DNA of 58,132 nt, filler included, from Sphacelaria rigidula (GCA_964200075.2; 3 parts of 3 records of this genome joined end to end with filler, not necessarily neighbours in it); one strand, 5' to 3'; numbered from the whole stretch's first letter, positions 15,121-38,374 are shown. The notes: generated from the sequence alone by a model not told the origin. A program made the numbers and translations.

Positions 15121-15214
15121 GGGAAAAATTACAATATTCCCCCATTTTCAGCCGAAAACTACCCTACCAACACTGAAAATGGACTACACAAGTAGAGGAA
15201 CAGCGAAAACATTT

Positions 15215-16772: not shown

Positions 16773-16852
16773 AAACATTTTCATAACACTCCTCCTCGAT
16801 GAAAGTTGCCGGTGAGATGCGACAATCAAAATGCATGAATTGTTGAATATGA

Positions 16853-18330: not shown

Positions 18331-18587
18331 GCGTGTTGACCTCGCGGGGAGGGCGCAGCCTTCCCAGCCCACGCCGGTCGCTTGCTTCAGTCCGCGGAGT
18401 ACTGGACTAACAAGTGTCTCATCTCCAACGTACTTTTCATGACAGTGTCCCAACTCCGGGTAAAGCTCTGCAGCTGCGGGGTTCAAATGGAACTAAAAAT
18501 CGAGATATTTGAGGTAAGCAACCCCGAGGTGATCAAGTGACCGAAAATATAACTCGAAGTGGTGTGATCACGCATACATGAGGTGTG

Positions 18588-19318: not shown

Positions 19319-19418
19319 NNNNNNNNNNNNNNNNNNNNNNNNNNNNNNNNNNNNNNNNNNNNTTAATTAATTAANNNNNNNNNNNNNNNNNNNNNNNNNN
19401 NNNNNNNNNNNNNNNNNN
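19319..19418. other. Artificial contig-joining spacer
   Basis: 44 N + TTAATTAATTAA (stops in all six frames) + 44 N = exactly 100 nt. Composition changes abruptly across it. Confidence 0.98.
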
Positions 19419-19837
19419 GTTTCGTATATATGTCGTTAGGCGATCTATATATTCAGACGAACCGCTACACAGCTTCGGAGCGTTCCCTTCAATCTGCGCT
19501 CACCGCGTTCGGTCGACTGGAGCAGCGGGACTGGCTTCAGGAAGGCCAGGTACACAGTGTGTTGGGCTTTCTATATATTCGGGCGAACCGCTACGCAGCT
19601 TCTGAGCGTTCACTTCAATCTGCGCTCACCGCGTTCGGTCACCTGGACCCACGGGACTGGCTTCAGGAAAGCCAGGTGCACCGCTTTCTGGGCGCTTTAT
19701 ACCTTGTGACCAACCGCTACGAGGCATCGGAGCGTTCACTTCAATCTGCGCTCACCGCGTTCGGTCGACTGGAGCAGCGGTACTGGCTTCAGGAAGGCCA
19801 GGTGCACCGTTTGTTGGGTGGCCTACACAGGACAAAG
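19419..19837 (+). repeat. 126-bp intragenic tandem repeats (TPR units)
   Basis: AACCGCTAC recurs at 19460, 19586 and 19712, each followed by a near-identical GAGCGTTC.CTTCAATCTGCGCTCACCGCGTTCGGTC...CTGGCTTCAGGAA.GCCAGGT.CAC block. Confidence 0.95.
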
Positions 19838-22003
19838 GGTCGGTCGACCGACGCGTCTCGGCACTTCGCCCTCGCGCGTAAGCAGATCGGTCGCACGCAC
19901 CCCTTGGAGGCGGCTGAGGTGGATCTTCGCTCCGCGATGACGCCGGATGATCGCGTGCGAGCGCTCGGGCGGATGCTCCTTCTGCTGGATCGAGTCGAGG
20001 ACACAGAGCGCAGCCTACAGGCCCAAAACACACTGCACCCCTACATCATTGCCCAGGTGGCAGACCAATATGCGTCGAACGCGCCGGAGGCTTGGCACTG
20101 GTCAGATGTCGGGCGTGCGGTATGGACGATGCAGGCCATGCGTCGGGGCTCAGGCGGCCGGCTGGGCGAGCGATTCGCGTCGACCGGGAGCGACGTGAAG
20201 ACTCTGCAGGCGCGCATGTCAAACGTTGAAGCAGCGATTGACCCGAAGCCAGACTTGCGGACCCGCGAAAGCCTGTTTGAGTCCCCGGAGGCGCTGCTCG
20301 ACGAAGCTCAGGCGCTTGTGACGGCGCTTCGCGCGCTTGGGCCTGCGGGCGAGGCGCTGGCTGAGGCTACATACTTGGTCCCGTTGGCTGCGAGCGACAT
20401 TCCGCTCGAAGACGGCGAGGTGCTAGTGGAGTACCGGGTGCTCGAAGACAAGGTGTTGCTCTTCGTGCTCCGGAAGGGCGAGGCCGTGACGGCCCACTCG
20501 CTCGGCAAGCTGGTCGTCCATCCGGGAGGCGGTGGTCTGGAGCCCCTTGAGCAGGCCTCAACGTCCACGCAGTCCGCAAGCGCGGCCCTCGCGGCGGTGG
20601 TCGCTGCGTACGGCGCTGAGGCCAACTGTACGGGGGGAGCCAGACCGCGAGCCCTGTCGCTCGAGCTGGGCGCTGCACTGTACGACCGCCTCGTGGGCCC
20701 CGCGAAGCTGGACCCGACCCGAGACAAGCGCATCATCGTGGTCGCGGACGGCGCGCTGTGGCGTCTACCGTTCGAGGCCTTGCTGACCACGGCCCCTGCG
20801 AAGGTCTGCGCGCAGCTCGGAGGGTACACCGAAGCCTGCGAGCTCGTCGCAACGTCTTCGAAATGCAACTTGCAGAGCATCCCGTTCGTAGATGCGACCT
20901 ACGGGGTGAGTTACCTGCCATCGGCCCGCGCGCTGCGTTGGCAACGCAAGACGCTGCGTCAGGTCCCTCGGGACGACGTCGACCCCAAGGCACGACCCCT
21001 GCTATTCGCGGACGCGGTGTTCGGCAGCGATGACCCGCGTTGCAAGAACGGGCTCTCCTGTCCTTCAGGCGAGCAGGTGAAGCGGTTCGATGAACGCCTC
21101 GAACAGGTCGAGCAGGGGGCGTCCCCAGACGCTTCGAGTGCGGTGGCATTGGCCAGCCGAGGAAGCACTCGACGCAGTGCCGAGGGTGGCCGACTGCTGG
21201 GGACAGCCTACGAGGCGGCCGCGTTGAACGGGCTGCTTGGTCGGATGGGTCTGGACCCGGTTGTGCATGAGGGCCTCGATGCCCAAGAGGAGTATCTGGG
21301 GGGCTCTGATGTCCCAGTCGCGCCGGGCTTCGTGCTTGGTCTACCGATGCACGGGGTGGTGAACGCATACGCGGAGACCGGCGTGCTGGTGATGTCCATC
21401 CCGACATCCACCGCAGCAGATGGCCTGCTCTATCCCTACGAGACCTCGAACCTAGACCTGCGGGGCACCGAGGTTGTGCTCTTGACCGCGTGTCAGCTCG
21501 GCCGGGGCCTCCTGAGGCCGGGCCAAGGTGTGCTGGGCATGGTCGACCACTTCATGGCGCAAGGCGCGAAGCGGGTGTGGGCGAGCGGGTGGGACATTGA
21601 CGACGCCTCGGGTGCGGAGCTGACGGCGCGGATGATGGCGTACGCGGTCAGTGGCGAGGAGATCACGTCTGCAGCAGCTCACGCCCGCGGGGACCTTCGG
21701 CGGCAGTACGGCGTCGCTGGAGTCCACCCGTGGTACTGGGCGGGGCTCCGGGTCATCGGTGCGCCAGGGCAGGTCCAAGTGCCGCAGGGCACGAAGCGGT
21801 TGTCCACGGAGGAGGCTCTGGGCGTCGCCCTCAAGGCCTTAACGAAGACACCGACAACTATGGCCGCCACAGTCAGCTCCTCGCTGCGCCCTGCTGGGGG
21901 AGGACCCGACGCCAATCAAACTGTATTGTGGCTTCTAGCGCTGGCCACCTTTGTGGGCGTCGTCTTGGCGTTCGCGTTCGTTCGAACGCGCCGGTCTCCG
22001 TGA
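19419..22003 (+). CDS. TPR-repeat CHAT-domain (caspase-like, clan CD) protease with C-terminal membrane anchor; 5' truncated at the contig edge
   Basis: 42-aa TPR-like repeats and CHAT motifs LYDRLVGP, IIVVADGALWRLPFEALL, VSYLPSA, LLGTAYEA, MHG (catalytic His), VLLTACQLG (catalytic Cys), SGWDIDD, HPWYWAG. C-terminus is VLWLLALATFVGVVLAFAFVRTRR. The frame is open to the contig edge, so ATG 19430 is probably internal. Confidence 0.92.
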
Positions 22004-22007
22004 ACCG

Positions 22008-22033
22008 TGTCAGATGAACATCGGCTCGACGTT
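22008..22033 (+). promoter_or_regulatory. Putative ECF-type promoter TGTCAG-N16-CGTT upstream of the TadE-like gene
   Basis: TGTCAG 22008-22013, CGTT 22030-22033, ATG 10 nt later. Same motif and spacing at five other gene starts. Confidence 0.75.
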
Positions 22034-22043
22034 GATGGGGTGC

Positions 22044-22451
22044 ATGAGAACCACGGGACGACATCGTTTTCGAGGCAACGCAGTGCTGGAACTCGTGGCG
22101 GTGATGCCCATCATTCTGCTGTTCGCGTGGCTAGCGCTCGACCAGTTCTTTGTTTGGATGCCGCTTCAGCCCGAGAGCGTGCACTTGCGTGCCGCACTTT
22201 GGCAGGCCCGGAACGGGGGCGATGCGCCGCCACTTCCGGCGGGATGGTCCGTGGAGCGATTCTCATCGACTGCCGATGTGGGGTTCGATGAACTGCCGCT
22301 CGAACATCGACGGGTTTACGCGAAGTGGAGCAACCTTGAGGGTCAATCGCTCGGAAAGACGATGGAGATGTTCACGATCGTGGACCCGCGCCTCGGACCT
22401 CGGACCACGCCGGATATCTGGGGCGTTCTCTTCAGTGGGGAGGGCTTTTGA
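22044..22451 (+). CDS. TadE-like pseudopilin
   Basis: MRTTGRHRFRG|NAVLELVAVMPIILLFAWLAL: basic leader, G|xxxxE prepilin-peptidase site, hydrophobic helix with Pro. Confidence 0.75.
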   Translation: MRTTGRHRFRGNAVLELVAVMPIILLFAWLALDQFFVWMPLQPESVHLRAALWQARNGGDAPPLPAGWSVERFSSTADVGFDELPLEHRRVYAKWSNLEGQSLGKTMEMFTIVDPRLGPRTTPDIWGVLFSGEGF

Positions 22452-22537
22452 GGGTCGACTTCAAACGGTTTCTGCCGCCGATATCATGCGTGGTTTTGAC
22501 ATGTTAGGTGATTCTAGGAAGAAATCGTTGTGCATCC

Positions 22538-22563
22538 TGTCAGATGGGGCTGGTACCCACGTT
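22538..22563 (+). promoter_or_regulatory. Putative ECF-type promoter TGTCAG-N16-CGTT upstream of the sigma-like gene (autoregulatory)
   Basis: TGTCAG 22538-22543, CGTT 22560-22563. Confidence 0.75.
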
Positions 22564-22648
22564 CATGTGGTTGCAATGGATGCTCGCCAGGCCCCAGGCC
22601 CCAGGCCCCAGGCTTGCCGCGCGACGCCAAAGCAGAAAGGGATGGACC

Positions 22649-23977
22649 ATGCACGGAGGTGGAGTGACAGCAGTTGAGGCTTGCACACGGTGGCTTTGCA
22701 CCTGTCTCGCGGCCCTCGTCGCGCGACGCGCAGTGTGGGTTGATATCCAAACGTTGCTCCCCGTGACGGAGAAGGCGTACGACACCTTCCGGCAATTCGT
22801 CTCTGCTCTCGGCCCAGGCGCGAGCGCGAAAGACGTCTCGCTGTGCGAGACGGTTGAGCTGCTCTCTGCCCTGCTGGTCGAGGAGCTAGGTGGCAAAGTC
22901 TGGAATGCGCTGGAGGACGCGTGTGCCGCTGTCACGAAGGGCGAATCAGAGACTGTCGTGCGAGACCTGCTCGTCGAAGCCCTATCGCCGGACAGCGTGG
23001 ATGAGGCAGAGGAGCTGCTCCTCGAAGCCCTGTCGCTGGACAGCGTGGACGAGGCAGAGGAATCGGCCGTCTCCCGTGAATTCCCCTTCCCGATCGGAGA
23101 AATCCAGACGCCAGAGGACCTCACGAAGCTTGTTGCTGTTGGTGTTGCGGCGTCGCTGGCCGAGATGAGGAGGTGGGGCCGGAGATCCGACGTCGATCTC
23201 GCCAAGGGAATCGCGACGGATGCTGTGGTGAAAGTACTAGTGAGCTACGAGAAGAAGCTGAACGATGGTACGTGGAAGGAAGAGCCTCGATCTGAGCGCT
23301 TGCGAAGATTGCAGGGAGTAGCCGCGAGGAATCTAACGAAGGACAGATTGCATCGGCTCGTGCGCGAGGTAGGCACGGAAGAGCAAGACCTTGATCGTTC
23401 CATCCATCGACAGAGCCCACCCCCGCCGAATTTTCGACTAGACTCCGATTACTACATCCTTTGGGGCTGCCTCAGGCAATACAATAGAGCGAACGCGACC
23501 GAAGGCCAAAAACGCGCGATCCGGCATATCTGCGCGGAGATGATCGGAATCGATATGTGGTGGCTGCGTCGCATGTTCCGGTTGCTCTTCAACATCCCTA
23601 CCTTGAGCGCAATCGAGGCAGGCGTATATCGGATGAGGAATGCCGTCGTTTCGGCTATCGGCGAAGATCACGAACAGCTGAGCCAGAGGGAGTTGCCTCG
23701 GCTATTGCAGGACACCATGGTCATCTACAATGATCTCGCCGCCGAACTTGTTCAAGCGTGTCAACACAACTTGGTCCAGGGCGTGCTCGACGCTCAGCGC
23801 TTGCGGGCGAGTCTTGTGGGAACTCCACTGTGCTCCGGACCGGGTGTCATGCCAGGCATGCAGCGCCCGGCTGCGCCATCGTTGTCGGCAGATGTGCTCG
23901 TTGCCCGCCTCACCGCCTGGATCATCAACAACCCCAATTTCTGCCCCCAAGTGATTCCAAGAGGAGAAGCGAGATGA
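22649..23977 (+). CDS. Divergent ECF sigma-70-like factor with N- and C-terminal extensions (paralogue 1)
   Basis: Region-2-like IATDAVVKVL...LQGVAARNLTKDRLHR and region-4-like FNIPTLSAIEAGVYRMRNAV. Clear similarity to 36925-38310, and stop overlaps the next start (ATGA). Start is uncertain: ATG 22649 or GTG 22664; the longer ORF would overlap the promoter motif. Confidence 0.65.
   Translation: MHGGGVTAVEACTRWLCTCLAALVARRAVWVDIQTLLPVTEKAYDTFRQFVSALGPGASAKDVSLCETVELLSALLVEELGGKVWNALEDACAAVTKGESETVVRDLLVEALSPDSVDEAEELLLEALSLDSVDEAEESAVSREFPFPIGEIQTPEDLTKLVAVGVAASLAEMRRWGRRSDVDLAKGIATDAVVKVLVSYEKKLNDGTWKEEPRSERLRRLQGVAARNLTKDRLHRLVREVGTEEQDLDRSIHRQSPPPPNFRLDSDYYILWGCLRQYNRANATEGQKRAIRHICAEMIGIDMWWLRRMFRLLFNIPTLSAIEAGVYRMRNAVVSAIGEDHEQLSQRELPRLLQDTMVIYNDLAAELVQACQHNLVQGVLDAQRLRASLVGTPLCSGPGVMPGMQRPAAPSLSADVLVARLTAWIINNPNFCPQVIPRGEAR
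22967..23062 (+). repeat. 48-bp in-frame tandem duplication
   Basis: LLVEALSPDSVDEAEE / LLLEALSLDSVDEAEE, near-identical at DNA level. Confidence 0.95.
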
Positions 23978-25074
23978 CCAAGAAGGACTCGACGCTTGGG
24001 TCAGTGGGTCTAGGCGACCCGGGTCCCGAGGAGATTGCGTCCTTGGACGCGCTGCGTGTTCAGGTGGTTCGAGCTTGCAGGTCGAAGGGCCTCGCTTGCG
24101 AGCTGTCCGATGAGCTTCTGTATCGAGCGATGTCAGGGACCCTTGACCCTGGTTTGCGCGAGGAGGTGCGCGATCTGGCTGGGGATGTGTATGAGGCTCA
24201 GGAGGCCGAGCTTGCTGCTAATGTCAGCGCGCTGATCGCTGGCTCGGAGACTTCGCCGACCCCACTTCGGCTCGGTGTCTCTGAGGTGCTGGCGGAGCGG
24301 GGGACGACGACCGCATTCTCCGAAGAAGTTCTCTATGCGGCGATCGGTGGCTGTCTGAACACCGAAGACCAGGCCCGCGTTGAGGCCATTGCAGAATCTG
24401 AGCTGGCCGCTTTACGCAGCGACCTTGCTGCCGACGTCAGCTCTTTGCTGAAGCGAGCACGGCCATCAACTGCGGCCGTTTCGGAAGACACCGCGTCTAC
24501 GATTGGGACTGCGGTTCGGCGGGACCAAGGCCCATTAGGGGTAGGCGTTGACCGGGCCGAACAGGACCCGGTGGGAGCTGCAAACAAAGAACATCAGTCA
24601 CCAGCCGGAAATGTGATTCCGTTCCGACGTTGGCTGCGTGGGCAAGTCGTGCCCGTGGTCTCAGCACTGGCGGCAAGTATCATCGTGCTCTCGGTAGGGC
24701 GGGTTTGGCTCCAGGATGAAGGTAGTGGGATTCGGGCCATAGGGAACCGCGGACCCGAAGTTTCGGTAGAGTTCTCACCATCAACACGAAGCGTAGGTCC
24801 TTTGCATTGCCCTGGTTGTGGCTTGGGGAGTTTTCCTGGTGCCTTTGAGCTGGTTCTGAAGCCGCAGGTATTGGGCTCTGAGTCGGCCACGCTCACCTAC
24901 CATCTTGATGGCGAAGAAGGCCCGGTATCGGAGTCCATCGACTTCGCTGATGGGCGGTACTGGGCGGCAAAGACGGGCTGGAACCCTAGGCGTCCGATCA
25001 CGGTTACGCTGCCTGAACGGGAGAACCTGGTGGTCGTTGTGCCGATTGCTACCGGCTCTGACGCTGTCCCTTGA
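23974..25074 (+). CDS. Transmembrane anti-sigma-factor-like protein
   Basis: GAGGAG RBS and ATGA coupling to the sigma-like gene. Two copies of an anti-sigma-domain-like helix pair (DELLYRAMSGTLDPGLREEV; EEVLYAAIGGCLNTEDQARVE), a NVIPFRR...ALAASIIVL transmembrane segment typical of anti-sigmas, and a small beta-rich C-terminal domain. Confidence 0.7.
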   Translation: MTKKDSTLGSVGLGDPGPEEIASLDALRVQVVRACRSKGLACELSDELLYRAMSGTLDPGLREEVRDLAGDVYEAQEAELAANVSALIAGSETSPTPLRLGVSEVLAERGTTTAFSEEVLYAAIGGCLNTEDQARVEAIAESELAALRSDLAADVSSLLKRARPSTAAVSEDTASTIGTAVRRDQGPLGVGVDRAEQDPVGAANKEHQSPAGNVIPFRRWLRGQVVPVVSALAASIIVLSVGRVWLQDEGSGIRAIGNRGPEVSVEFSPSTRSVGPLHCPGCGLGSFPGAFELVLKPQVLGSESATLTYHLDGEEGPVSESIDFADGRYWAAKTGWNPRRPITVTLPERENLVVVVPIATGSDAVP

Positions 25075-25076
25075 TT

Positions 25077-25109
25077 CATCGTGGCTGATTCTGGGAGTCA
25101 GCCACGGTG
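25077..25109 (+). terminator. Stem-loop after the anti-sigma-like gene
   Basis: CATCGTGGCTGA...TCAGCCACGGTG, a 12-bp stem with one G-U pair, 2 nt after the stop. No U-tract. Confidence 0.55.
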
Positions 25110-25134
25110 CGAACCGAACTCTTGAAAAAAGGTA

Positions 25135-25160
25135 TGTCAGGAAGGGCTGTCCGCCACGTT
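25135..25160 (+). promoter_or_regulatory. Putative ECF-type promoter TGTCAG-N16-CGTT upstream of cpaF
   Basis: TGTCAG 25135-25140, CGTT 25157-25160, ATG 10 nt later. Preceded by an A-tract (TGAAAAAAG). Confidence 0.75.
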
Positions 25161-25170
25161 GTTGGTACAG

Positions 25171-26289: not shown

Positions 26290-26333
26290 AATAACCGACG
26301 GCTCCGCTGAGTGCCGTCGAAGGAGGCTGACGC

Positions 26334-27545
26334 ATGGCCGTGATCAGATCAGATCGGTACGTTCGGGACCGAAAACTCAAACAGGATCGGGACCTCGTTG
26401 TCGAGGTGGCTCGAGACGTCGATTCCGGGAGGCGGGTCGTGATCCGTCAGCTCCCTCCAGAGCTTCCCGTCCAGTGTGAAGCTGGGGAGTCGCTCCGACG
26501 CATGAAGGAAGTACTCGACGGTCTTGAGCGGCATCCGCACGTTGAGACGGTCGTTGATTCCGGGACGGACGAGCTGGGTCGACCGGTGCTGGTGACATCG
26601 TACTTTGAGGGCACACCGCTGTCGGTTCGTCTGGAACAGGGACCGCTTCCGGCCACTCGTTGGTTGGCGCTGGCGGTCGAACTCCTCACTATCTTAGACC
26701 ATCTGGCAGGACAGGGCATCCTGCACGGGGACCTGCACCCTGGACACGTGATCGTGAAGGACGACGTGTTGATGGGGATCGTTGACTTAGGAGGCGCCCA
26801 GCAACTCGACCTCCCCAGGACGGTGCGCGGTAGTGACCCCACGACCATGGCCCCGGAGGTCTTGTCGGGCGACAACTACGGCGCACGGACCGAGTTGTAC
26901 TCTACGGGCATGGTGTTACTGCAGGCGGCCGTCGGGCACGAGCGCTGGCGCACGATCGCGGGTGGTTCGAGCCGGGGGCAATCGCGTGATCAGTGGTTCG
27001 GCTTGCACACGAGGGGCTTTCCTGTTCCCGATCTTCGCACAATTGCGGGCGTAGGATGGGACGCCATCTCGGCCGAACCGACACTTCGCCAACTCGTTGC
27101 GCGTGAGCCAACGGACCGGCCCGAGGGCGCTCGTGAGGCTCTTGACCTGCTTTCTCGAGACCTGAACACTGCAATTGCGCCGTTCCTCCCAGCGGAAGGG
27201 AGCATTGATGCAGGGTGGACCGCTATCCAGCGGTCCACGGGGCGTAAGAGAAAGGATGCACGCAACAGCCGGCGTCACGTATGGCTCGCCGGGGCGGCTT
27301 GCTCTTTGCTTGGGCTGGGCCTGCTGGCCGTAGGGGCGCAATCCCGAGGTCGCGCCGCCGGATGCAGACTGGACTCAAGGCTTGAAGCCATGGCGCAAGA
27401 AGCCGTGGGCGACTCACGCAGAGCGCAACGGATCTCCGTCCAACTCGAGGCCGTCGGATGCAGCGACCTTGCGCGAACTCTGCGACAAACGACGTCGTCC
27501 GAGACTGAAGCTGGTCACGCAGACACTCACTTCCGTGCCCCCTGA
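26334..27545 (+). CDS. Membrane-bound Hanks-type Ser/Thr kinase-like protein (probable pseudokinase)
   Basis: AGGAGG RBS. Subdomains HPHVETVVDSG, LHGDLHPGHVIV, IVDLGGA, TMAPEVL, ELYSTGMVL, PTDRP, and TM helix VWLAGAACSLLGLGLLAVG. Confidence 0.85.
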   Translation: MAVIRSDRYVRDRKLKQDRDLVVEVARDVDSGRRVVIRQLPPELPVQCEAGESLRRMKEVLDGLERHPHVETVVDSGTDELGRPVLVTSYFEGTPLSVRLEQGPLPATRWLALAVELLTILDHLAGQGILHGDLHPGHVIVKDDVLMGIVDLGGAQQLDLPRTVRGSDPTTMAPEVLSGDNYGARTELYSTGMVLLQAAVGHERWRTIAGGSSRGQSRDQWFGLHTRGFPVPDLRTIAGVGWDAISAEPTLRQLVAREPTDRPEGAREALDLLSRDLNTAIAPFLPAEGSIDAGWTAIQRSTGRKRKDARNSRRHVWLAGAACSLLGLGLLAVGAQSRGRAAGCRLDSRLEAMAQEAVGDSRRAQRISVQLEAVGCSDLARTLRQTTSSETEAGHADTHFRAP

Positions 27546-27789
27546 GACCGCACCTGGTTCGGCCCGCAACTATCAACTGGACCACGTCAGTTCAGCCTTC
27601 GTCCCATCGCGTGTTGTCTGTGAGCGACGGGCCTCCCATTCCCGAGACTCCCTCAGCCTGACTCGCTGCCTCTCATCACTACCTAATACTATCGCGACAA
27701 TCTCGCCAGAACGCTTTGCCACTATCCCGACAGCAGCAACGTCCAGACCTCCGAAGCCCAGAGCTCGATCGAAAACAACTGAAAAAAGA

Positions 27790-27815
27790 TGTCAGACGAC
27801 CGCATCCAAGAAGTT
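27790..27815 (+). promoter_or_regulatory. Putative ECF-type promoter TGTCAG-N16-AGTT upstream of the Flp-like pilin
   Basis: TGTCAG 27790-27795, AGTT 27812-27815. Preceded by TGAAAAAAG as at cpaF. Confidence 0.7.
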
Positions 27816-27867
27816 ATCAGAACAACACGGAGGCAAAACCTCCATAGACCAAAAGGCGGGATCGAAA

Positions 27868-28047
27868 ATGCAGATCATCAAGTACGGGTACGAATTCTTG
27901 TGGGACGAGTTAGGCGCCGCGGCGGAGACCGTTGCAATCATCGGAGCTATCGCGGTTCCGTTGATCGTCACGCTCTTCTTTGCTGCGAAACAGATCAAGG
28001 AGACGTTCACGTCTGCCATCGAAGTGTTCTCTGGGTTGGTGCTTTAG
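27868..28047 (+). CDS. flp: Flp-like major pilin (59 aa)
   Basis: MQIIKYGYEFLWDELG|AAAETVAIIGAIAVPLIVTLFF...IKETF: F..DE.G leader, hydrophobic helix, Flp size. It is the 3' end of the listed 27382-28047 ORF. Confidence 0.8.
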   Translation: MQIIKYGYEFLWDELGAAAETVAIIGAIAVPLIVTLFFAAKQIKETFTSAIEVFSGLVL

Positions 28048-28125
28048 ACCGACAAGAAAGTGGGGTCGCCTGTGTCGGAGCACCCCCGCTCCCGCGCAGG
28101 CGTCCCACACATAGAAGGAAGAAAG

Positions 28126-28593
28126 ATGCCGAAGACTGAGTGCCCCGGAACCCTTGATACAATTGCAGCGATAATTCTCGCAGCCGTACTGCTGGCGGGT
28201 AGCGCGTGCGCGACCTCCCCCGTAGCTTTGCCGTTGCGCCTCAACCTACTTTCGCTGAGGGTGGTCGAGGTGGAGTCGAAGGATCCAATCTGTCAGGCGA
28301 AATTACGTCTCGAGAATCAGGACAACAAGAGCAGTCTATCAACCTCAGGATGGGCCGCCGTTAGCCATGACGGAAGGGCCTTCTTCACTCACGACCCTGC
28401 GCTTCCCCTCCCGCGGATTGGGATCAGCGTCCCGAGCAACTACTTCACTCCCCCAGCTCGGGGGGTCGAGTTCGACAACGAGTCTCTGTATGAGAAGACG
28501 ATCGTCGTTCGGGCGCGCTCGCGCAAGCACCACCAAGAATCGCAGCGTGAGTGCAAAGAGATCCGTCAGCTCCAGACGAACGCCGCGTACTAA
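28126..28593 (+). CDS. Putative lipoprotein, unknown function
   Basis: GAAGGAAG before ATG 28126; hydrophobic stretch IAAIILAAVLLAGSA|C. Confidence 0.6.
   Translation: MPKTECPGTLDTIAAIILAAVLLAGSACATSPVALPLRLNLLSLRVVEVESKDPICQAKLRLENQDNKSSLSTSGWAAVSHDGRAFFTHDPALPLPRIGISVPSNYFTPPARGVEFDNESLYEKTIVVRARSRKHHQESQRECKEIRQLQTNAAY
28564..28589 (+). promoter_or_regulatory. Putative ECF-type promoter CGTCAG-N16-CGTA upstream of the coiled-coil lipoprotein
   Basis: CGTCAG 28564-28569, CGTA 28586-28589, 26 nt before ATG 28616. Confidence 0.5.
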
Positions 28594-28615
28594 TAGCGAA
28601 AGGGGAGGACAGGAC

Positions 28616-29242
28616 ATGAATCATGGATGGCGTAAGAAGGTATCGACTCTCGGCTTTCTCGTAGTGCTGTTTGTCGGGGCAACGGCTTGCGACGAGGCGC
28701 CTCCGGCCTACCGGGCGCCCGGTGCCGGTAAGGCACCGCTTGAGAACAATAGGCTGCGAAAGAGGACGGAGGGAATCCAAGAGAAGGTTACGCTGGCGAT
28801 GGTGGAGGCCGAGCGTCTGGAGGGGGCCAAGGGTGAGTACATTGCAAAGCTCGAAGCCTGTGAGGACGACCAGCAACAGAGGGCAGAGCGAATCGAGGAA
28901 CTTAACAAGGAGGTCGCTCAGGCCCGTTCCCGTGGCCGCAAGCTTCGCGGCGCTCTGATACGTCTTAAGAAGGAGCAGTCTCGACTGAGGTACATCGAAG
29001 GGCAGATGGTGGGGCATCTACAGCGCGACTTTCCGATTATTCAGGAGAGGAAGTCACAACTCGATCGAATCAGACGCAAACTGACGAGCGGAAACGGCAT
29101 GAATGCGTGCAGGATGTTGATGGTGTTGGGGCAGCGGCTACGCATCGACCTAACGTCTACGCCATCGGACGGATTCGTCCACGGCTACCTCGCCGCCATC
29201 CTGAATCACGTAAATATCCTCTATAAAGAGTGCGGCGGGTGA
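28616..29242 (+). CDS. Coiled-coil lipoprotein, unknown function
   Basis: GGGGAGG RBS; MNHGWRKKVSTLGFLVVLFVGATA|C lipobox; heptad-rich helical body. Confidence 0.7.
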   Translation: MNHGWRKKVSTLGFLVVLFVGATACDEAPPAYRAPGAGKAPLENNRLRKRTEGIQEKVTLAMVEAERLEGAKGEYIAKLEACEDDQQQRAERIEELNKEVAQARSRGRKLRGALIRLKKEQSRLRYIEGQMVGHLQRDFPIIQERKSQLDRIRRKLTSGNGMNACRMLMVLGQRLRIDLTSTPSDGFVHGYLAAILNHVNILYKECGG

Positions 29243-29272
29243 TGACGGATATTCTGGAAGGACTATGAAGAG

Positions 29273-29941
29273 ATGGAACAGAAAGCAATAACGATGACCG
29301 CCGTGGCTATGGCTGTGGCGATAGGCGCGATGGGCTGTGACCACAAGCAAGGGCCGGCGGAGTCGAGTGAACAGCAGGCGATCGCATCCCTTGAGCGCCT
29401 CGATAATGAGCATCAGGAGAAGGAGATTCAGGGCCTCGAGATCCAACTTTCCGGTATGCTCGCCAAGCTCGAAAGCACCTCGGCCGACCTTGCGAATACG
29501 CAGGCGAATTTCGCCGAGTGTGCCGGTCGGCTCGGGCTGCAGACGCCGCAAATTGAGGCCCTGGAAGGGAAGGCGAAGAGAGCGCAGAGGCTGGCGAAGG
29601 ACCTCGGCAAGGCCGTGGCGAGTACAGAGAAAGGGAGGAAGGCGCTTGAAGTAAGCGTGAAGAAGGCGGTCGCGCAGGTTATTGCCCAGGGGGCCTCCGA
29701 CCTCGCAAAACTGCGAGTCGATCGCGATCGCCTCGAGGGAGCGCTACGGGCGGACACCCTCTCTTCGCGGCGCGTGCGCATACTCTGTGAGGCGCTAAGC
29801 GAGGTACTGTCCCGTGCACAAAGGCTCGATGAATTGCACGGCCACCCGCAGGAGATGGCCTGGGAGACCCAACGCCTTGCAGAGATGAACCGTGCGCACT
29901 GCGGTTCCAAAGACCGGCCGTCGAAAGGAAGGGCGTCATGA
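29273..29941 (+). CDS. Coiled-coil lipoprotein, unknown function
   Basis: AVAMAVAIGAMG|C lipobox; long heptad pattern; ATGA overlap with the next gene. Confidence 0.7.
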   Translation: MEQKAITMTAVAMAVAIGAMGCDHKQGPAESSEQQAIASLERLDNEHQEKEIQGLEIQLSGMLAKLESTSADLANTQANFAECAGRLGLQTPQIEALEGKAKRAQRLAKDLGKAVASTEKGRKALEVSVKKAVAQVIAQGASDLAKLRVDRDRLEGALRADTLSSRRVRILCEALSEVLSRAQRLDELHGHPQEMAWETQRLAEMNRAHCGSKDRPSKGRAS

Positions 29942-30456
29942 TTGTGATGGCAGTGGTCTTAATGGCTGCGACCGGGCAATCCGCATCCAATATGCACCCT
30001 ACATCCGTACCGGCGGCTCGGGTCCAGTATCCTCGTTGGGATTATGGTTTTGCCGTGGGAGGTGGGCTCGGCGGACGACGTGAACTCACGGAAGGCGAAG
30101 GAGGACTGAAGGGCTCGCTCGCAGGGGGAGCGCACATTGAGTGCGAGCTTGCCGAGCACTGGGCTTGGGTATCCACGGCGGACCTCCGAATCGGCATCAT
30201 ACCTGTTGCGTTGACGTCAGTCTTCACTCGGTCCGGCATACATGTGCGTTGGAAAATGCTCTTCGCTGGAGCGAACCTCCGGCTCGACGTCTATCCAACG
30301 CCCCCGGCCCCTGCTTTCGAGCCCATCGTCGGGGTTCGGTGGCTCATCGGCGCGACGACGCGTGTTTTCGCGCAAGTCGCCACGCCGCTCTATCCAACCC
30401 GCGCCGACAAGGTCGACGTACTTGTGGAGGCCGGGTTGCGCATCGCGTTCCGGTGA
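29938..30456 (+). CDS. Putative small outer-membrane beta-barrel protein
   Basis: Hydrophobic N-terminus, about 8 alternating amphipathic strands (YGFAVGGGLGG, GIHVRW, VGVRWLIG, RVFAQV), ends EAGLRIAFR. Confidence 0.6.
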   Translation: MIVMAVVLMAATGQSASNMHPTSVPAARVQYPRWDYGFAVGGGLGGRRELTEGEGGLKGSLAGGAHIECELAEHWAWVSTADLRIGIIPVALTSVFTRSGIHVRWKMLFAGANLRLDVYPTPPAPAFEPIVGVRWLIGATTRVFAQVATPLYPTRADKVDVLVEAGLRIAFR

Positions 30457-30470
30457 CCAGGGGATTAAGG

Positions 30471-30635
30471 ATGCGGACACGTCGGCGCCAGCATGTGCGA
30501 GGCCTCGCGGCACTTGAGACCGTTGCGATCGTCACGGTCGTCGCGTTCCCCCTCGCCGTCGCAGGCTGGATTGCGCATGACATGATATCCATATGGTGGG
30601 TTGCGACCTGGAACGTGATTGCCTTCCCGTGGTGA
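30471..30635 (+). CDS. Small pilin/pseudopilin (54 aa)
   Basis: MRTRRRQHVRG|LAALETVAIVTVVAFPLAVAGW...IAFPW: G|xxxxE site; shares ETVAI with the Flp. Confidence 0.75.
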   Translation: MRTRRRQHVRGLAALETVAIVTVVAFPLAVAGWIAHDMISIWWVATWNVIAFPW

Positions 30636-30692
30636 ATCAACGCCACCGACAAGTTAGAGAAGCAGAGTTGTTCGCATTAAAGGAGGCAGGGC

Positions 30693-31181
30693 ATGAGGAA
30701 GATCGAGAAGTACCGCCGAACCACGCGTGGACATGCAGCGATATCGGTCATGCTCGCGCTCCCCGTACTCCTCGGGTTCCTGGACCTTATGACTCAGGCT
30801 GTGGTCTTCGCTTGGGGCGTGAGCCTCAGCGGGCACGCCGCGGTGCGCGTCGCGCGGTCAGCCAGCGTGCTCGTCTCGCAGAGGCTCGAGAACGACGCCC
30901 CCAACGTGCTGGGCGCCGCGAAGAGAGTTAGGCTTGAGGAGGTTGCTCGCACCGCGCTTGCGCCTCTTGGGGAACGTCTGGCGATGACCCTGGATGTGCG
31001 AGACGGCACCTTCGGGCCGACCGAAATGATCGAGGTGCGACTCGACGTTGGACTGCCCTGCATCGCCCCCATGTGGGGGCGCTTGCTCTGCGATGAAAGA
31101 GAGGGGCAAGTCCGCCGACGATGGGTACGACACACGGTCTATATGCCAAACGAGGGACATCGCCATCTGGGCAGAAGGTGA
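30693..31181 (+). CDS. TadE-like pseudopilin
   Basis: AAAGGAGG RBS; RRTTRG|HAAISVMLALPVLLGFL...GHAAVRVARSASV (TadE AA..AAR.A motif). Confidence 0.8.
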   Translation: MRKIEKYRRTTRGHAAISVMLALPVLLGFLDLMTQAVVFAWGVSLSGHAAVRVARSASVLVSQRLENDAPNVLGAAKRVRLEEVARTALAPLGERLAMTLDVRDGTFGPTEMIEVRLDVGLPCIAPMWGRLLCDEREGQVRRRWVRHTVYMPNEGHRHLGRR

Positions 31182-31187
31182 GACACT

Positions 31188-32387
31188 ATGAAGACTGCAA
31201 GAAGAACCCGCCGAGGGATGGTGTCCATCTGGACGATGCTCGTGTTTATTGGACTCGTAGCGCTGGTATGCTTCGCGCACAACGCGGCCCGGTCGGTGTC
31301 GGCTGCGACGGAGGCCCAGGTGGCAGCGGACAACGCCGCGATGACCTTCGCCACGACTTACGCCCGCGGGCTCAACAAGATCGAGACTCTCAACCAGGAA
31401 TTGTCATTGATTATGGGCGCAAGAGCTGTCGCGGAAGCTCTGCCACGTGCACTCAGGGACTGCCGGACAACGGCGGTCGCACTGGCTGCGGCGACTTCCT
31501 GGTGGGGCGGCTGGGTGATTTACGGGCCGTATCTCGAAGCCCTTAACGTCCTGATCCCCACCGCCGACGGGCTTAGGGCCGTCGTGGTCGGTGCAGCGCA
31601 AGTACGCTTGCCTGTGTTGGCGCAGCAGGCGTACAGAATGGCCAAGGGTACGCCTGCCCTCGCCACGCAGACCGCGAGAGCTTCCATCGCAGAGACGGGC
31701 ATCACGGTGACCTTCGTGCCCCTAGACCCTGAGGGTGACCTCGAACTCCCAGTCCAACCTCGACCCCTCGGAGCCCTCTGCTCGTGGGTCAAGGACGGTT
31801 CACCCCAGGGGGCGGACAGCCGGCAACGCCGCGTCTTCTCTGCCCTCTGGGGGTGGCGAGAAGACGAAGGCACAGCCGAGCACATCGCCAAGGGGTGGAG
31901 CCTGCCGGAGCTGTTCAATATCGCCCTCGCCCCAGTGGGCGGCCCGTTCCACTGGTCCCATCGGCTCAAGGAGGCCGTTAGAGACGAATGCGATCGCACG
32001 GAACCGGGACCGTATCTGTTTCCATCGACGTCCAATCCTGTCGAGAAAGCAGCCCAGCGAACCCAGTTCCTAGCCCTGACATTAGCTCCTCGGCCCCTCC
32101 TGCTCGATGTCATCGCGCCTCGTAGCGGTGAACGTACATTCGAGCGTACCGAGACCACCGCGCTCCTCTCGACCGCCACGGTCGAGCTCGCCAACGATGT
32201 AAGCATCGGGTGTGCGAGCAGCGCCTCGTGGGCTCCGCAGCTGGTCTTCGAGCCGGACGCGACGCTTGCAGCCGTCGCTCGTGTGGGGGATCTCGGGCTT
32301 TCCGAGGCAATGAGCACCACCATCACAAACCGCTTTCGCCATCACGCGCGCGTCGCAGTTGGACGTGGCTTTAGCGCCTCTCACTAG
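31188..32387 (+). CDS. TadG-like pilus-assembly protein
   Basis: RRTRRG|MVSIWTMLVFIGLVALVCF...EAQVAADNAAMTFATTYARGLN matches the Tad N-terminal Q.AAD.AA motif. Confidence 0.8.
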   Translation: MKTARRTRRGMVSIWTMLVFIGLVALVCFAHNAARSVSAATEAQVAADNAAMTFATTYARGLNKIETLNQELSLIMGARAVAEALPRALRDCRTTAVALAAATSWWGGWVIYGPYLEALNVLIPTADGLRAVVVGAAQVRLPVLAQQAYRMAKGTPALATQTARASIAETGITVTFVPLDPEGDLELPVQPRPLGALCSWVKDGSPQGADSRQRRVFSALWGWREDEGTAEHIAKGWSLPELFNIALAPVGGPFHWSHRLKEAVRDECDRTEPGPYLFPSTSNPVEKAAQRTQFLALTLAPRPLLLDVIAPRSGERTFERTETTALLSTATVELANDVSIGCASSASWAPQLVFEPDATLAAVARVGDLGLSEAMSTTITNRFRHHARVAVGRGFSASH

Positions 32388-32639
32388 CGGGACCAGGCGT
32401 TCGAAAGGGGCACAAGGCTTGGTCCTCGCTTTCTCTCTAAGACGAGGCGTCGCAGAGTGCACCCGCAGACCAGTTTTGGCTTAGTCCCTTGCTCAGAAAT
32501 TCGAGCAATCAAGTCGGAAGGCCTCAGTATCCAGTATGCGGGCGCGCAATAATCTGGCATGATTGCGTGTTGCTCAACGGGGCGCCAGCCGTATGTGCTG
32601 TCTTGCCATTCCGCCCTGAACAAGAATCGAGAGTCCAAC

Positions 32640-33125
32640 ATGTCCGGAGAAAGCTTGAAAGCGTCTCGAACTGCACGAGTGACACCCACGCTAAACGTCG
32701 AAGCGTCCGTGGACCTCGTCTGTCACCAGCTCGGCGAGACTCGTGAGCAGCCGTCAAGCCGAGAGCAAGTCCTTCAGAAGCGCGATGAACTAGTCTATCG
32801 CGCGCTAGTGGGTGAACTCGACCCTCGCCTTACCAACGAGGTACGGGAGTTATTCGCGGACCGTATTGAGGAACTTGGACTGCAGGTCGATGGCGAGGTA
32901 TGTTGGCTCATCGGCGCCTCGACCATTGCCCTCGCGCTTGAGATCGCAGAAAAAGCAGCCGCGGAAGGCGTGAGCGTCGAGTTGCCCGATAGTCTGCTTG
33001 AAGCTGCGGCTGAAGGCAAACTGAGCGAGGAGGTGACGGCACGTCTTGAAGCGATCGCATGGCCCGAGCTTGCCGCGACCCGTCTTGTCGTTTGGGGCAG
33101 GGCTGGCAAGGGGGACTTAGGATGA
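32640..33125 (+). CDS. Soluble paralogue of the anti-sigma-like N-terminal double domain
   Basis: DELVYRALVGELDPRLTNEVRELFAD aligns with DELLYRAMSGTLDPGLREEVRDLAGD, and ARLEAIAWPELAA with ARVEAIAESELAA. No TM helix. Confidence 0.7.
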   Translation: MSGESLKASRTARVTPTLNVEASVDLVCHQLGETREQPSSREQVLQKRDELVYRALVGELDPRLTNEVRELFADRIEELGLQVDGEVCWLIGASTIALALEIAEKAAAEGVSVELPDSLLEAAAEGKLSEEVTARLEAIAWPELAATRLVVWGRAGKGDLG

Positions 33126-33131
33126 AATCAC

Positions 33132-33172
33132 GGGCAGCTTGCAGCTCCCTGTTGAGCTGTCAAAGGCTGCCT
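33132..33172. terminator. Stem-loop between convergent genes
   Basis: GGCAGC.TTG.CAGCTC-loop-GAGCTG.CAA..GCTGCC in the 66-nt gap between two stop codons. Confidence 0.5.
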
Positions 33173-33191
33173 GACGCGGACGAGCCGGCCA

Positions 33192-38310: not shown

Positions 38311-38374
38311 AGTCTTGGTTCGCCAGATTCACCTCTCGCGTTCGGACACAGCCCGCTCGTCTGATTTCGGGCCC

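Follow-up and report, generated by a model that had tools for sequence, protein, structure and literature searches.

One contig of the DNA analyzed here may encode a DdvA/DdvS-type envelope signaling module that is split into separate genes and has a Tad-like surface machine as its output; we give this reading a probability of about 0.4. A gene for a TPR-CHAT protease is followed there, after one intervening gene, by a coupled pair of genes for a candidate sigma factor and a membrane-bound anti-sigma-like protein, and a CpaF-type ATPase and pilin-like proteins are encoded nearby.

The contig and its genes

The window, i.e., the whole stretch of 58,132 nucleotides, consists of three contigs joined via N/TTAATTAATTAA linkers, and because linkers flank both ends of the gene cluster, the latter constitutes a 19,309-bp contig of its own (contig B, positions 19419-38727). 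Contig B and its genes are real, and the contig is found with 100% identity across the sequencing runs of three studies. It represents bacterial DNA amid eukaryote-like DNA and comes from a very divergent bacterium, which would accompany a eukaryote with a large genome. As originally predicted, the genes form one co-directional cluster, with densely packed open reading frames (ORFs) on the plus strand (19430-33125) and coding-like GC contents of the codon positions (e.g., 0.65/0.45/0.68 in g3). The linkers and the genes are as follows.

19319-19418, no strand: contig-joining linker (44 N, TTAATTAATTAA, 44 N); the contig to its left is unrelated
19419-22003, plus: g1, TPR-CHAT protease, 5'-truncated; 857 amino acids (aa) from the ATG at 19430
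22044-22451, plus: g2, candidate TadE-like pseudopilin with N-terminal hydrophobic segment RGNAVLELVAVMPIILLF; no family match
22649-23977, plus: g3, sigma-like orphan, all-helical, 442 aa
23974-25074, plus: g4, anti-sigma-like single-pass membrane protein, 366 aa
25159-26289, plus: g5, CpaF/TadA-type secretion ATPase, Walker A motif GPPSCGKTT
26334-27545, plus: g6, membrane-anchored degenerate Ser/Thr kinase-like protein, transmembrane (TM) helix at residues 316-334
27867-28047, plus: g7, candidate Flp-like small pilin, 60 aa; repeat family D7 shared with g12
28123-30456, plus: g8 to g11, three lipoprotein-like proteins (28123-28593, 28619-29242, and 29273-29941; two of the three coiled-coil) and one envelope protein of 172 aa (29938-30456)
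30471-30635, plus: g12, Flp/TadE-like
30693-31181, plus: g13, TadE-like
31188-32387, plus: g14, TadG-like
32559-33125, plus: g15, soluble protein paralogous to the repeat domain on the cytoplasmic side of g4 (42% identity over 103 aa)
33192-36668, minus: g16, 1158 aa, on the same contig beyond the range of the original prediction
36925-38310, plus: g17, paralogue of g3 (25% identity, E = 4e-13)
38315-38584, plus: 90-aa ORF after g17
38728-38827, no strand: second contig-joining linker (44 N, TTAATTAATTAA, 44 N)

Family-model searches returned no matches for g8 to g11, and no family was recognized for g16, which is flanked by a second sigma-like gene (g17) and a gene for a second anti-sigma-like domain (g15). 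Paralogues of g3 and of the N-terminal domain of g4 are both found on contig B.

The TPR-CHAT protein and the candidate sigma/anti-sigma pair

The g1 gene is considered 5'-truncated because its frame is open to the first base of contig B, within a 126-nt tandem TPR repeat; three such repeats are found at 19435-19818. Its product matches the Pfam families CHAT (E = 4.3e-29) and TPR_12 (E = 2.6e-10), and the catalytic pair, His641 (21350-21352) and Cys688 (21491-21493), is invariant in an alignment of 16 sequences and aligns with the HG and AC motifs of Myxococcota CHATs. At its C-terminus, a TM helix is predicted (residues 832-850; 21923-21979), followed by the basic tail RTRRSP. Judged by its sequence, g1 is a membrane-anchored TPR-CHAT protein with an intact catalytic dyad, and the original prediction was right about both the His/Cys pair and the anchor. 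At the sequence level, g1 has no match among Protein Data Bank (PDB) chains. Foldseek searches with its AF2 model (pLDDT 60) retrieved Csx29, DdvA, and separase (E values from 1e-9 to 4e-8), with craspase Csx29 chains as the best matches (1e-9 to 1e-8) and the DdvA chains 8rw5 and 8rot at 2e-8 to 4e-8.

The g3 product has roughly double the size of an ECF sigma factor, and its gene contains a 48-nt tandem repeat (22964-23059). Neither g3 nor g17 matched the Sigma70_r2, r4, or ECF families of Pfam and NCBIfam even at E values of up to 10, and sequence and profile searches of the PDB with g3 returned no sigma factor. A weak alignment to sigma region 2 was seen at residues 176-235, where the hhalign comparison of a profile of g3 and its paralogue with 13 natural ECF sigmas scored highest (regions 2.1 to 2.4, P = 0.02). 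This alignment is in register (ARNLTKDRLH against I.N..iD.lRk), and its score was matched by 1 of 100 column shuffles. No similarity to region 4 emerged, as P was 0.14 and 22 of 100 shuffles did equally well. Among named atlas clusters, those closest to g3, Sigma70_ECF/Sigma70_r2 (0.90-0.91), serve as leads only. The AF2 model of g3 had a pLDDT of 38.8, too low for use in judging the sigma2/sigma4 fold called for in the original prediction, and both structure models made for the sigma question were poor. It is plausible that g3 is a highly divergent sigma-like factor, with the status of a candidate.

The stop codon of g3 overlaps the start codon of g4 (ATGA, 23974-23977), with GGAG upstream. 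The predicted g4 protein consists of about 220 cytoplasmic residues, in which an LLYRA-G-LDP motif is repeated twice, a single TM helix (residues 223-241; 24640-24696), and about 125 aa that form an external domain. This layout, in which a soluble helical protein precedes one with a single membrane pass, supports the view that g3 and g4 are arranged as a sigma/anti-sigma pair. The g4/g15 repeats aligned in register with the N-termini of anti-sigma factors (hhalign, P = 0.024), and the nearest named atlas cluster of g4 was zf-HC2 (26% of members, score 0.87), again as a lead only. Neither an H-x3-C-x2-C motif nor a zf-HC2 match (family search up to E = 10) was found in g4, and the best PDB match of the g4/g15 profile, to SpoIIAA, was insignificant (E = 0.84). 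The putative sigma region 2 of g3 and anti-sigma N-terminal helix of g4 give concordant, if weak, signals. Of the coupled sigma/anti-sigma pair that had been predicted, the gene overlap and the TM helix are borne out and the region 2 match is suggestive, whereas Pfam, NCBIfam, and the PDB lend no support to the sigma identity of g3.

Tad-like genes, putative promoters, and genome surveys

The g5 product matches T2SSE (E = 3.3e-30) and the TadA-family model TIGR03819 (E = 1.5e-60), which confirms the predicted CpaF ATPase. Its relatives are named CpaF, and the nearest ones (41-45% identity) come from Phycisphaerales, Bdellovibrionales, Bradymonadales, Polyangiaceae, and Bacteriovorax. The g6 product matches Pfam Pkinase (E = 3.8e-15) but lacks the G-loop and has VVIR in place of VAIK and HGDLHPGH in place of HRDLKPxN; these degenerate motifs make its earlier description as a pseudokinase a reasonable one. 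Kinase genes are found near CpaF in 10 of 80 loci. The five proteins described as pilin-like (g2, g7, g12, g13, and g14) do have pilin-type N-terminal hydrophobic segments, but none matched a TadE or Flp family at E values of up to 10, and the sole Tad-family match among them, of g14 to PF13400 (Tad; E = 0.0097), is below the cutoff. In addition, g13 and g14 match the TadE and Tad proteins of the locus L005 (E = 1.4e-3 and 5.9e-3, respectively). No TadB/C, TadZ, secretin, or prepilin peptidase (A24) was found in the 19 kb of contig B.

The promoter-like motif said to be common to six genes was not found upstream of the contig B genes. Five genes are preceded by the hexamer TGTCAG at a distance of up to 120 nt (5 of its 9 plus-strand copies), an insignificant enrichment equaled by that of another hexamer, CGCCAT, and no 7-mer is found upstream of at least four genes. 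A bipartite motif, [CG]GAAN-N16-17-GTCAG, defined post hoc once the sequences had been inspected, occurs three times on the plus strand of contig B and never on the minus strand (mean of 0.31 in shuffled sequences; 3 of 500 shuffles reached 3). The three copies lie upstream of g3, g5, and g7, in the three largest plus-strand intergenic gaps.

22517-22543, plus: site 1, GGAAG-N17-GTCAG, about 106 nt upstream of g3
25115-25140, plus: site 2, CGAAC-N16-GTCAG, upstream of g5
27770-27795, plus: site 3, CGAAA-N16-GTCAG, 72 nt upstream of g7

Sites 2 and 3 share an additional TGAAAAAAG. Plausibly, these sites are ECF-like promoters of the sigma-like, ATPase, and Flp-like genes.

Relatives of g3 and g4 were sought in 5.8 billion clustered proteins (by word search), in 1.84 billion representative proteins (one repetitive false match), and among 311 pattern matches in JGI metagenome contigs, and none was detected. 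Conserved synteny of CHAT and tad genes, put forward as a check of the original prediction, was not encountered: no other instance of the CHAT-Tad link was seen, with no CHAT gene within 10 kb on either side of CpaF in 80 CpaF loci and no CpaF in 54 CHAT loci. An ECF sigma is encoded within 4 kb in 3 of 14 CHAT loci (from three genomes). Another 40 CHAT loci included 11 with an ECF sigma, these 11 stemming from only 3 genomes. In this second set, there were 12 ECF sigma ORFs in 689,454 bases of CHAT loci versus 6 in 1,393,908 bases of CpaF-centered loci, which supports an enrichment of ECF sigma neighbors among the CHAT genes of the phylum Myxococcota, as sampled in few genomes. In the locus L160, a Sigma70_r2/r4_2 gene is followed by one for a zf-HC2 TM protein and then by a separate TPR-CHAT gene whose product ends in a TM helix; this order of three genes recurs in L151 and L169.

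Proposed mechanism, alternatives, and known systems

In the proposed mechanism, g1 would be a cysteine protease anchored in the inner membrane by its C-terminal helix, with its bulk probably in the periplasm. Upon sensing a signal through its TPR part, it would cut the external domain of g4, which would then be removed, probably via a site-2 protease whose gene lies in another part of the genome. The ligands named in the original prediction (prey, kin, or an algal surface) are speculative. This would free g3 to act as a divergent sigma-like factor at the three GAA-N16-17-GTCAG promoters, which would serve g3 itself, the pair of CpaF ATPase and pseudokinase genes, and the Flp/TadE/TadG and lipoprotein genes, yielding a Tad-like surface machine.

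The same genes could also be coincidental neighbors, with g3/g4 (and g17/g15) being accessory proteins that are restricted to this lineage and belong to a Tad-like pilus or secretion cluster, or having some other role, rather than a sigma/anti-sigma pair, and with TPR-CHAT acting on an unrelated substrate. This would fit the lack of sigma/anti-sigma family matches at E values of up to 10, the undetected region 4 and poor structure model of g3, and the failure of protein and metagenome searches to return g3/g4 relatives, as well as the surveys, in which CHAT never adjoins CpaF (80 plus 54 sampled loci) and the common TPR-CHAT genes mostly have no sigma neighbor (29 of 40 and 11 of 14 loci). We nevertheless find it somewhat less likely than the proposed mechanism, given that four weak signals concur (the region 2 alignment, the anti-sigma-type helix, the atlas leads, and the coupled soluble-then-TM architecture), that ECF-type bipartite sites fall exactly in three promoter-sized gaps, and that L160 has the same trio with canonical parts.

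A genuine sigma/anti-sigma/CHAT module might instead regulate itself and genes elsewhere, such as g16 or a defense island, with the Tad-like genes as mere neighbors. DdvA/DdvS controls CBASS and CRISPR-Cas rather than pili (PMC11506125); the CHAT-Tad link is absent from the sampled loci; and the second sigma-like and anti-sigma-like domain genes lie on either side of g16. However, two of the three bipartite sites, those with the shared TGAAAAAAG, immediately precede the ATPase and Flp-like genes, and PADLOC found no defense proteins on contig B except for generic kinase models, making such a regulon improbable. Least probable is that the CHAT protease has a direct role in the pilus machine rather than in signaling, e.g., by processing pilin-like or lipoprotein components for the missing prepilin peptidase. 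The absence of an A24 peptidase from contig B, its presence between CpaF and TadE in L005, and the position of TadE-like g2 directly after g1 would agree with such a role, but the peptidase may lie elsewhere because contig B covers only 19 kb, known prepilin cleavage takes place on the cytoplasmic face and is performed by aspartic peptidases, and no CHAT gene is found near any of the 80 CpaF loci.

The preferred reading, a split DdvA/DdvS-type module with a Tad-like output, combines features of several known systems. Contig B resembles Tad/Flp (type IVc) pilus clusters and the Tad-like Kil machine of predatory bacteria in having a CpaF-type ATPase and Flp-, TadE-, and TadG-like proteins, the pilin assignments resting mostly on N-terminal segments; unlike those clusters, it lacks a TadB/C platform, a secretin, TadZ, and a prepilin peptidase. 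The type III-E craspase comprises Cas7-11/gRAMP with the TPR-CHAT protein Csx29, Csx30, Csx31, and an ECF sigma. The g1 model is most similar to Csx29 chains; however, Csx29 is soluble and effector bound, whereas g1 is predicted to be membrane anchored, and searches of contig B detected neither Cas7-11 nor a CRISPR array nor Csx30/31. The craspase TPR-CHAT protease is reported to be functionally tied to the release of a sigma regulator (PMC10028731).

The split trios of Myxococcota (L160, L151, L163, and L169), for which no published description was found in the literature searched, likewise consist of three separate co-directional genes, and the L160 CHAT, which has a signal peptide, shares with g1 a C-terminal TM helix. 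They differ in their canonical Sigma70_r2/r4_2 sigmas of 170-200 aa, a match that the 442-aa g3 lacks, in the zf-HC2 anti-sigma of L160, which has no counterpart match in g4, and in gene order (sigma, anti-sigma, CHAT, as opposed to CHAT upstream of g3-g4). No Tad genes are found near these trios, and their proteins show no detectable sequence similarity to g3 or g4.

The original prediction knew of no described system with this combination. It had overlooked DdvA/DdvS of Myxococcus xanthus, in which a transmembrane anti-sigma with a periplasmic TPR-CHAT has an ECF sigma partner, and periplasmic-side CHAT cleavage is proposed to lead to intramembrane proteolysis and sigma release (PMC11506125). 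Relative to that description, g1 and g4 are two distinct proteins, which would make cleavage a trans reaction; the anchor helix is C-terminal in g1 and N-terminal in DdvA; g4 has no CHCC zinc site; g3, unlike DdvS, is not recognizable as an ECF sigma; and the neighbors are Tad-like rather than CBASS or CRISPR genes. As in DdvA/DdvS, a membrane-bound TPR-CHAT with a His-Cys dyad is found beside a sigma-type/anti-sigma-type pair, and the system would need no CRISPR effector. DdvA/DdvS and the split Myxococcota trios provide precedents for the coupling of CHAT proteases to sigma factors.

Origin and gene content of contig B

The two linkers in the window (19319-19418 and 38728-38827) are identical, each consisting of 100 bases in the arrangement 44 N, TTAATTAATTAA, 44 N. 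As the window is therefore a concatenation of three contigs, gene neighborhood across the linkers has no biological meaning. The GC content is ~58 to 66% between the linkers versus ~43 to 53% in the flanks. Both flanking contigs (1-19318 and 38828-58132) contain hardly any open frames of more than 150 aa, whichever stop codon scheme is tried; short tandem repeats are abundant in them, their nine longest open reading frames (ORFs) have no Pfam matches, and they look like noncoding eukaryotic DNA. A run of 36 C bases is found in the right one, at 58043-58078. The tRNA and Rfam scans of the window returned no matches. A protein collection lists the ATPase of contig B as encoded on a contig of exactly 19,309 bp. 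Contig B itself, the piece between the linkers (19419-38727; 19,309 bp), displays dense coding, overlapping stop and start codons, and GGAG-type ribosome sites, a style that, judging from the sequence, is bacterial.

Contig B is genuine, as difference-free pieces of it recur across sequencing runs. A single contig piece from run X1 spans positions 19823-38694, and three overlapping pieces from run X4 tile 19751-38709, all with 0 differences from contig B, which rules out a chimera or an assembly artifact. These two runs represent two host labels; X5, from a second study, carries contig B in part, and 22 Hi-C reads in X8, from a third study, match it at 99 to 100% identity. The word depth of contig B is ~75 in X1 and as high as ~965 in X4. 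The libraries under the host labels include 200-Gb Hi-C and polyA RNA-seq, pointing to a large eukaryote. The overall picture suggests that the source of contig B either accompanies these hosts stably or contaminates them commonly. Every assembly of contig B breaks at the same two points, on the left at a 126-nt tandem TPR repeat and on the right at a repeat (~38.63-38.69 kb) that is common to another contig. Its genes are referred to here, from left to right, as g1 to g18; those discussed by position are as follows.

Selected genes of contig B
19430-22003, + strand: g1, with CHAT and TPR_12 matches
22649-23977, + strand: g3, sigma-like protein of 442 aa with coding-type codon statistics
32559-33125, + strand: g15, soluble paralogue of the repeat domain of the anti-sigma-like g4
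33192-36668, - strand: g16, protein of 1158 aa, no family
36925-38310, + strand: g17, paralogue of g3, 461 aa (25% identity, E 4e-13)
38315-38584, + strand: g18, 90-aa ORF after g17

By its matches to T2SSE (3.3e-30) and TIGR03819 (1.5e-60), g5 is classified as a CpaF/TadA-type ATPase. Its relatives that are named CpaF show 44 to 45% identity, and the nearest relatives, at 41 to 45% identity, come from Phycisphaerales, Bdellovibrionales, Bradymonadales, Polyangiaceae, and Bacteriovorax. Pilin-type hydrophobic N-terminal segments are found in g2, g7, g12, g13, and g14 and are the sole basis for the pilin-like reading of g2, g7, and g12. In addition, g14 resembles PF13400 at an E value of 0.0097, which is below the cut-off, and g13 and g14 match the TadE- and Tad-domain proteins of an Anaerolineaceae locus, L005, with E values of 1.4e-3 and 5.9e-3, respectively. 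Proteins g8 to g10 are lipoprotein-like, two of the three being coiled-coil, and g6 is a membrane-anchored kinase-like protein in which the glycine loop is absent, VVIR stands in place of VAIK, and HGDLHPGH replaces HRDLKPxN. No contig B ORF belongs to the families of the TadB/TadC platform, the CpaC/RcpA secretin, or the TadV/CpaA prepilin peptidase; as contig B is only 19.3 kb long, these parts may lie elsewhere. A second, divergently arranged set on contig B comprises g16, g17, g18, and g15.

For comparison, we sampled 80 loci, each reaching 10 kb to either side of one of the closest CpaF relatives. Ser/Thr kinase genes accompany the CpaF-type ATPases in 10 of them. Thus, L005 (9950-16588) has the order CpaF, A24 peptidase, TadE, TPR-kinase, and TadG, with an FHA protein close by, and in L018 and L053, the kinase gene directly follows the ATPase gene.

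The TPR-CHAT protein and the sigma-like and anti-sigma-like pair

The original prediction of a TPR-CHAT protein with intact His and Cys residues was borne out. The CHAT domain (Pfam ID PF12770) is recognized in residues 412-777 of g1 with 102.3 bits (cut-off, 24; E 4.3e-29) and is preceded by TPR_12 (E 2.6e-10). His641 and Cys688 are invariant in an alignment of 16 sequences and align with the THG and SAC motifs of 8 CHAT proteins from Myxococcota. Since its frame runs uninterrupted from base 1 of the contig and its full-length relatives are longer (1000 to 1200 aa, with an identity of only 25 to 30%), g1 is truncated at the N terminus. The AF2 model of g1 has a pLDDT of 60; Foldseek matches it to the Csx29 craspase, DdvA (8rw5, 8rot), and separases with E values of 1e-9 to 4e-8, and its TM-scores to Csx29, DdvA, and separase are low, 0.25 to 0.35. 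Sequence and profile searches of the PDB with g1 returned no CHAT chain. Its domain content, catalytic dyad, and TPR array place g1 in the TPR-CHAT family, with predicted protease activity. At the C terminus, a transmembrane (TM) helix is followed by RTRRSP, which by the positive-inside rule would place the C terminus inside and the bulk of the protein, whose N terminus is missing, outside the cytoplasm.

Apart from g17, no relatives of g3 were detected by a word search of a 5.8-billion protein set. A metagenome contig scan with the g3 and g17 alignment gave 311 pattern matches and no relatives, Pfam and NCBIfam searches with g3 yielded no family even at E<=10, and sequence and profile searches of the PDB returned no sigma chain. 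The sole HMMER match to g3 and g17 among 1.84 billion representatives, a repetitive protein of 1794 aa that aligned ten times with profile columns 72-121, was judged to reflect low complexity; this spurious match is due to the acidic LLVEALSPDSVDEAEE repeat of g3, which is encoded by a 48-nt tandem duplication (90% identity) at 22964-23059. The AF2 model of g3, built from a two-sequence alignment, has a pLDDT of 38.8.

[quoted passage not shown] Five genomes supplied 13 natural ECF sigmas, whose alignment was compared with the g3/g17 profile by hhalign. The best match paired residues 176-235 of g3 with regions 2.1 to 2.4 in the expected register (P 0.02); 1 of 100 column shuffles matched this score, and the score of the reversed profile was lower. 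Region 4 (sigma-4) was not detected: the P value was 0.14, 22 of 100 shuffles scored as high, there was no Pfam match, and the alignment falls in an insertion found only in g17. Among the named clusters of a language-model atlas, Sigma70_ECF and Sigma70_r2 are the nearest to g3 (0.90 to 0.91), which we treat as a lead only. On these sequence comparisons, g3 is no more than a putative sigma factor.

The start codon of g4 overlaps the stop codon of g3 (ATGA). The predicted layout of g4 consists of ~220 cytoplasmic residues, one TM helix (223-241), and an external domain of ~125 residues, that is, the architecture of a single-pass anti-sigma factor with a cytoplasmic N terminus, coupled to a sigma-like gene. 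The cytoplasmic part contains two repeats of an ELLYRA-G-LDP motif, which recur in g15 (42% identity over 103 aa). Class I anti-sigma factors carry an N-terminal anti-sigma domain, often with H-x3-C-x2-C; g4 has no zf-HC2 match, and its repeats have no zinc (His/Cys) motif. Compared by hhalign with the N termini of candidate anti-sigmas that adjoin the sampled ECF sigmas, the g4 and g15 repeats aligned in register (P 0.024). In BLASTP comparisons with 13 candidate anti-sigmas, no match of g4, g15, or g18 had an E value below 0.7, and sequence and profile searches of the PDB with g4 returned no anti-sigma chain. The atlas links g4 to one cluster (score 0.87) in which 26% of the members have zf-HC2. 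The complex predicted for g3 (residues 140-400) and g4 (residues 25-175) scored 0.02 against a mark of 0.34 and, given the uncertain fold of the partner, weighs neither way. In locus L086, from a Bradymonadales metagenome-assembled genome, a candidate anti-sigma encoded 3' of an ECF sigma has three tandem LL-RY-DGE repeats before the TM helix, a module that is an architectural analogue of the two repeats in g4.

Promoter-like sites and CHAT-sigma neighborhoods

According to the original prediction, six genes of the cluster share one promoter-like motif. De novo k-mer searches revealed no such motif; TGTCAG precedes five genes. This hexamer is found on the contig in 9 copies on the + strand and 1 copy on the - strand, and five of these copies precede g2, g3, g5, g6, and g7 by no more than 120 nt (binomial 5e-4). 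In a comparison of all hexamers, CGCCAT equals it in enrichment, and no 7-mer is found upstream of 4 or more genes. The copy at 21491-21496 represents the codons of the catalytic Cys688 and Gln689 of g1, so coding sequence adds to the motif count. More telling is the bipartite pattern [CG]GAAN-N16-17-GTCAG, apparently of the classical ECF type, which occurs exactly 3 times on the + strand and 0 times on the - strand and occupies the three largest + strand intergenic gaps.

Bipartite sites on contig B
22517-22543, + strand: upstream of g3
25115-25140, + strand: upstream of g5
27770-27795, + strand: upstream of g7

The g5 and g7 sites additionally have TGAAAAAAG in common. Local shuffles contained a mean of 0.31 copies of the bipartite pattern and reached three copies in 3 of 500 cases, statistics that are optimistic because the pattern was defined after the sites were seen. 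The three ECF-like sites are only suggestive of promoter recognition by g3. A scan for sigma-70 promoters and terminators stayed at the chance level.

Conservation of the entire set, with CHAT, sigma, anti-sigma, and tad genes together, was likewise not borne out (0 of 80 CpaF loci and 0 of 54 CHAT loci): the CpaF loci encode no relatives of g1, g3, or g4, and the CHAT loci encode no CpaF. For the narrower idea, a CHAT gene next to a sigma/anti-sigma pair, there is precedent. In a first sample of 14 CHAT loci from three genomes, an ECF sigma was found within 4 kb in 3. A survey of 61 genomes of the phylum Myxococcota then gave 64 CHAT matches in 27 genomes, of which 41 are covered by the 40 loci taken; the matches left out were 2 already sampled, 13 with open frames of >1,500 aa, 5 fragments of <700 aa, and 3 further ones from genome G063. 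An ECF sigma is present in 11 of these 40 loci. Since one of the 11 positive loci belongs to G042, four to G048, and six to G063, they represent just three genomes and are not independent. By ORF counts, there are 12 ECF sigmas in 689,454 bases of CHAT loci versus 6 in 1,393,908 bases of CpaF loci. Four of the CHAT loci contain trios.

Trios of ECF sigma, TM anti-sigma, and secreted TPR-CHAT in Myxococcota
L160, 9437-13340, - strand
L151, 6026-10398, + strand
L169, 6978-10288, + strand
L163, 9268-13242, + strand

In L160, a Sigma70_r2/r4_2 protein is followed by a TM protein in which zf-HC2 is recognized (E 0.0012) and then by a separate TPR-CHAT (1.8e-43) that has a C-terminal TM helix as well as a signal peptide. 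The same order is seen in L151 and L169, with a middle TM protein that has no assigned family. Judging from gene order and domain content, these trios are the DdvS-DdvA arrangement in split form, and they suggest that the split format is a recurrent signaling design. In three other loci, L164, L166, and L167 (all from G048), ECF sigma frames abut TPR-CHAT frames, as in ddvS-ddvA, and these CHAT genes possibly encode fused DdvA-like anti-sigmas. There are several sigma-CHAT modules in the single genome G048, and G063 has 15 CHAT matches. Neither the split sigma/anti-sigma/CHAT form nor an ECF-controlled Tad cluster was found to be described in the literature searched.

The proposed switch and its relation to known systems

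From the anatomy of contig B and the catalytic residues of g1, we infer, with a probability of roughly 0.4, that contig B encodes a split DdvA-type module. In this scheme, the membrane-anchored TPR-CHAT protein g1 would clip the external domain of g4, the clipped g4 would be degraded, and its loss would free g3, which would then transcribe three operons from the bipartite sites, turning on the Tad-like machine. A fuller version, which we consider rather unlikely, has g3 and g17 as a sigma-like family without detectable public relatives, held by the orphan membrane anti-sigma g4 and released in trans by the membrane-anchored, periplasmic, caspase-like g1; this would be a CRISPR-independent, split variant of the DdvA principle, with a Tad-like surface or contact machine as the direct output, in an uncultured eukaryote-associated bacterium.

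The main rival, which takes g3 and g4 for lineage-specific proteins of some other function and g1 for an unrelated neighbor, is possible though doubtful: it would agree with the isolation of g3 and g17 in the databases, and the in-register alignments of g3 and g4 and the anti-sigma layout of the latter speak for a regulatory pair. The switch could also be real and its regulon different from the Tad-like genes, a version that we regard as improbable; the sites upstream of g5 and g7 point to the Tad-like output, and the lack of g1, g3, and g4 relatives in the sampled CpaF loci points away from it. That the CHAT protease serves the pilus machine directly is very improbable; CHAT and CpaF were not seen together in either set of loci. 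Compared with these versions, the split DdvA-type module remains our preferred reading. Should it fail, the locus would be a Tad-like cluster of the ordinary kind, containing accessory genes that are orphans and lying beside one of many TPR-CHATs.

If the split-module reading is true, CHAT control of ECF-type switches goes beyond DdvA, which is the single characterized case (fused, acting on defense genes), and takes in a split format that acts in trans as well as a new output, the Tad-like machine; g3 and g17 would also show how far a sigma-like protein can diverge, out of range of every family model. Overall, the original observation is partly confirmed and its interpretation partly supported, the qualifications being the status of g3 as a sigma factor and the precedence of DdvA/DdvS. 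What keeps the locus of interest is the sigma-like family without known relatives, the split format with its proposed action in trans, and a link to Tad that was seen in no other sampled locus.

Among known systems, the type IVc (Tad/Flp) pilus likewise has a CpaF/TadA ATPase, represented here by g5, and differs in its platform, secretin, and peptidase, which are absent from contig B. The type III-E craspase system includes Cas7-11/gRAMP and a CRISPR array, neither of which was found on contig B. The closest counterpart is DdvA of M. xanthus, an anti-sigma that spans the membrane, has a TPR-CHAT as its periplasmic part, and is paired with the ECF sigma DdvS (PMC11506125); this pairing runs counter to the claim that no system with such a combination had been described. 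In the mechanism proposed there, CHAT autoproteolysis is followed by cleavage by RseP (PMC11506125). DdvA/DdvS controls a CBASS/CRISPR defense island, whereas contig B has no repeat arrays and its PADLOC matches are to generic kinase models only; its reading as a defense island was set aside. The TPR-CHAT part of DdvA is reported there as periplasmic, and in g1, which lacks its N terminus, the C-terminal helix and basic tail suggest a bulk on the outside. Finally, DdvA combines the anti-sigma and TPR-CHAT in one polypeptide, whereas contig B encodes them as separate proteins, g4 and g1, with g2 and g3 in between.
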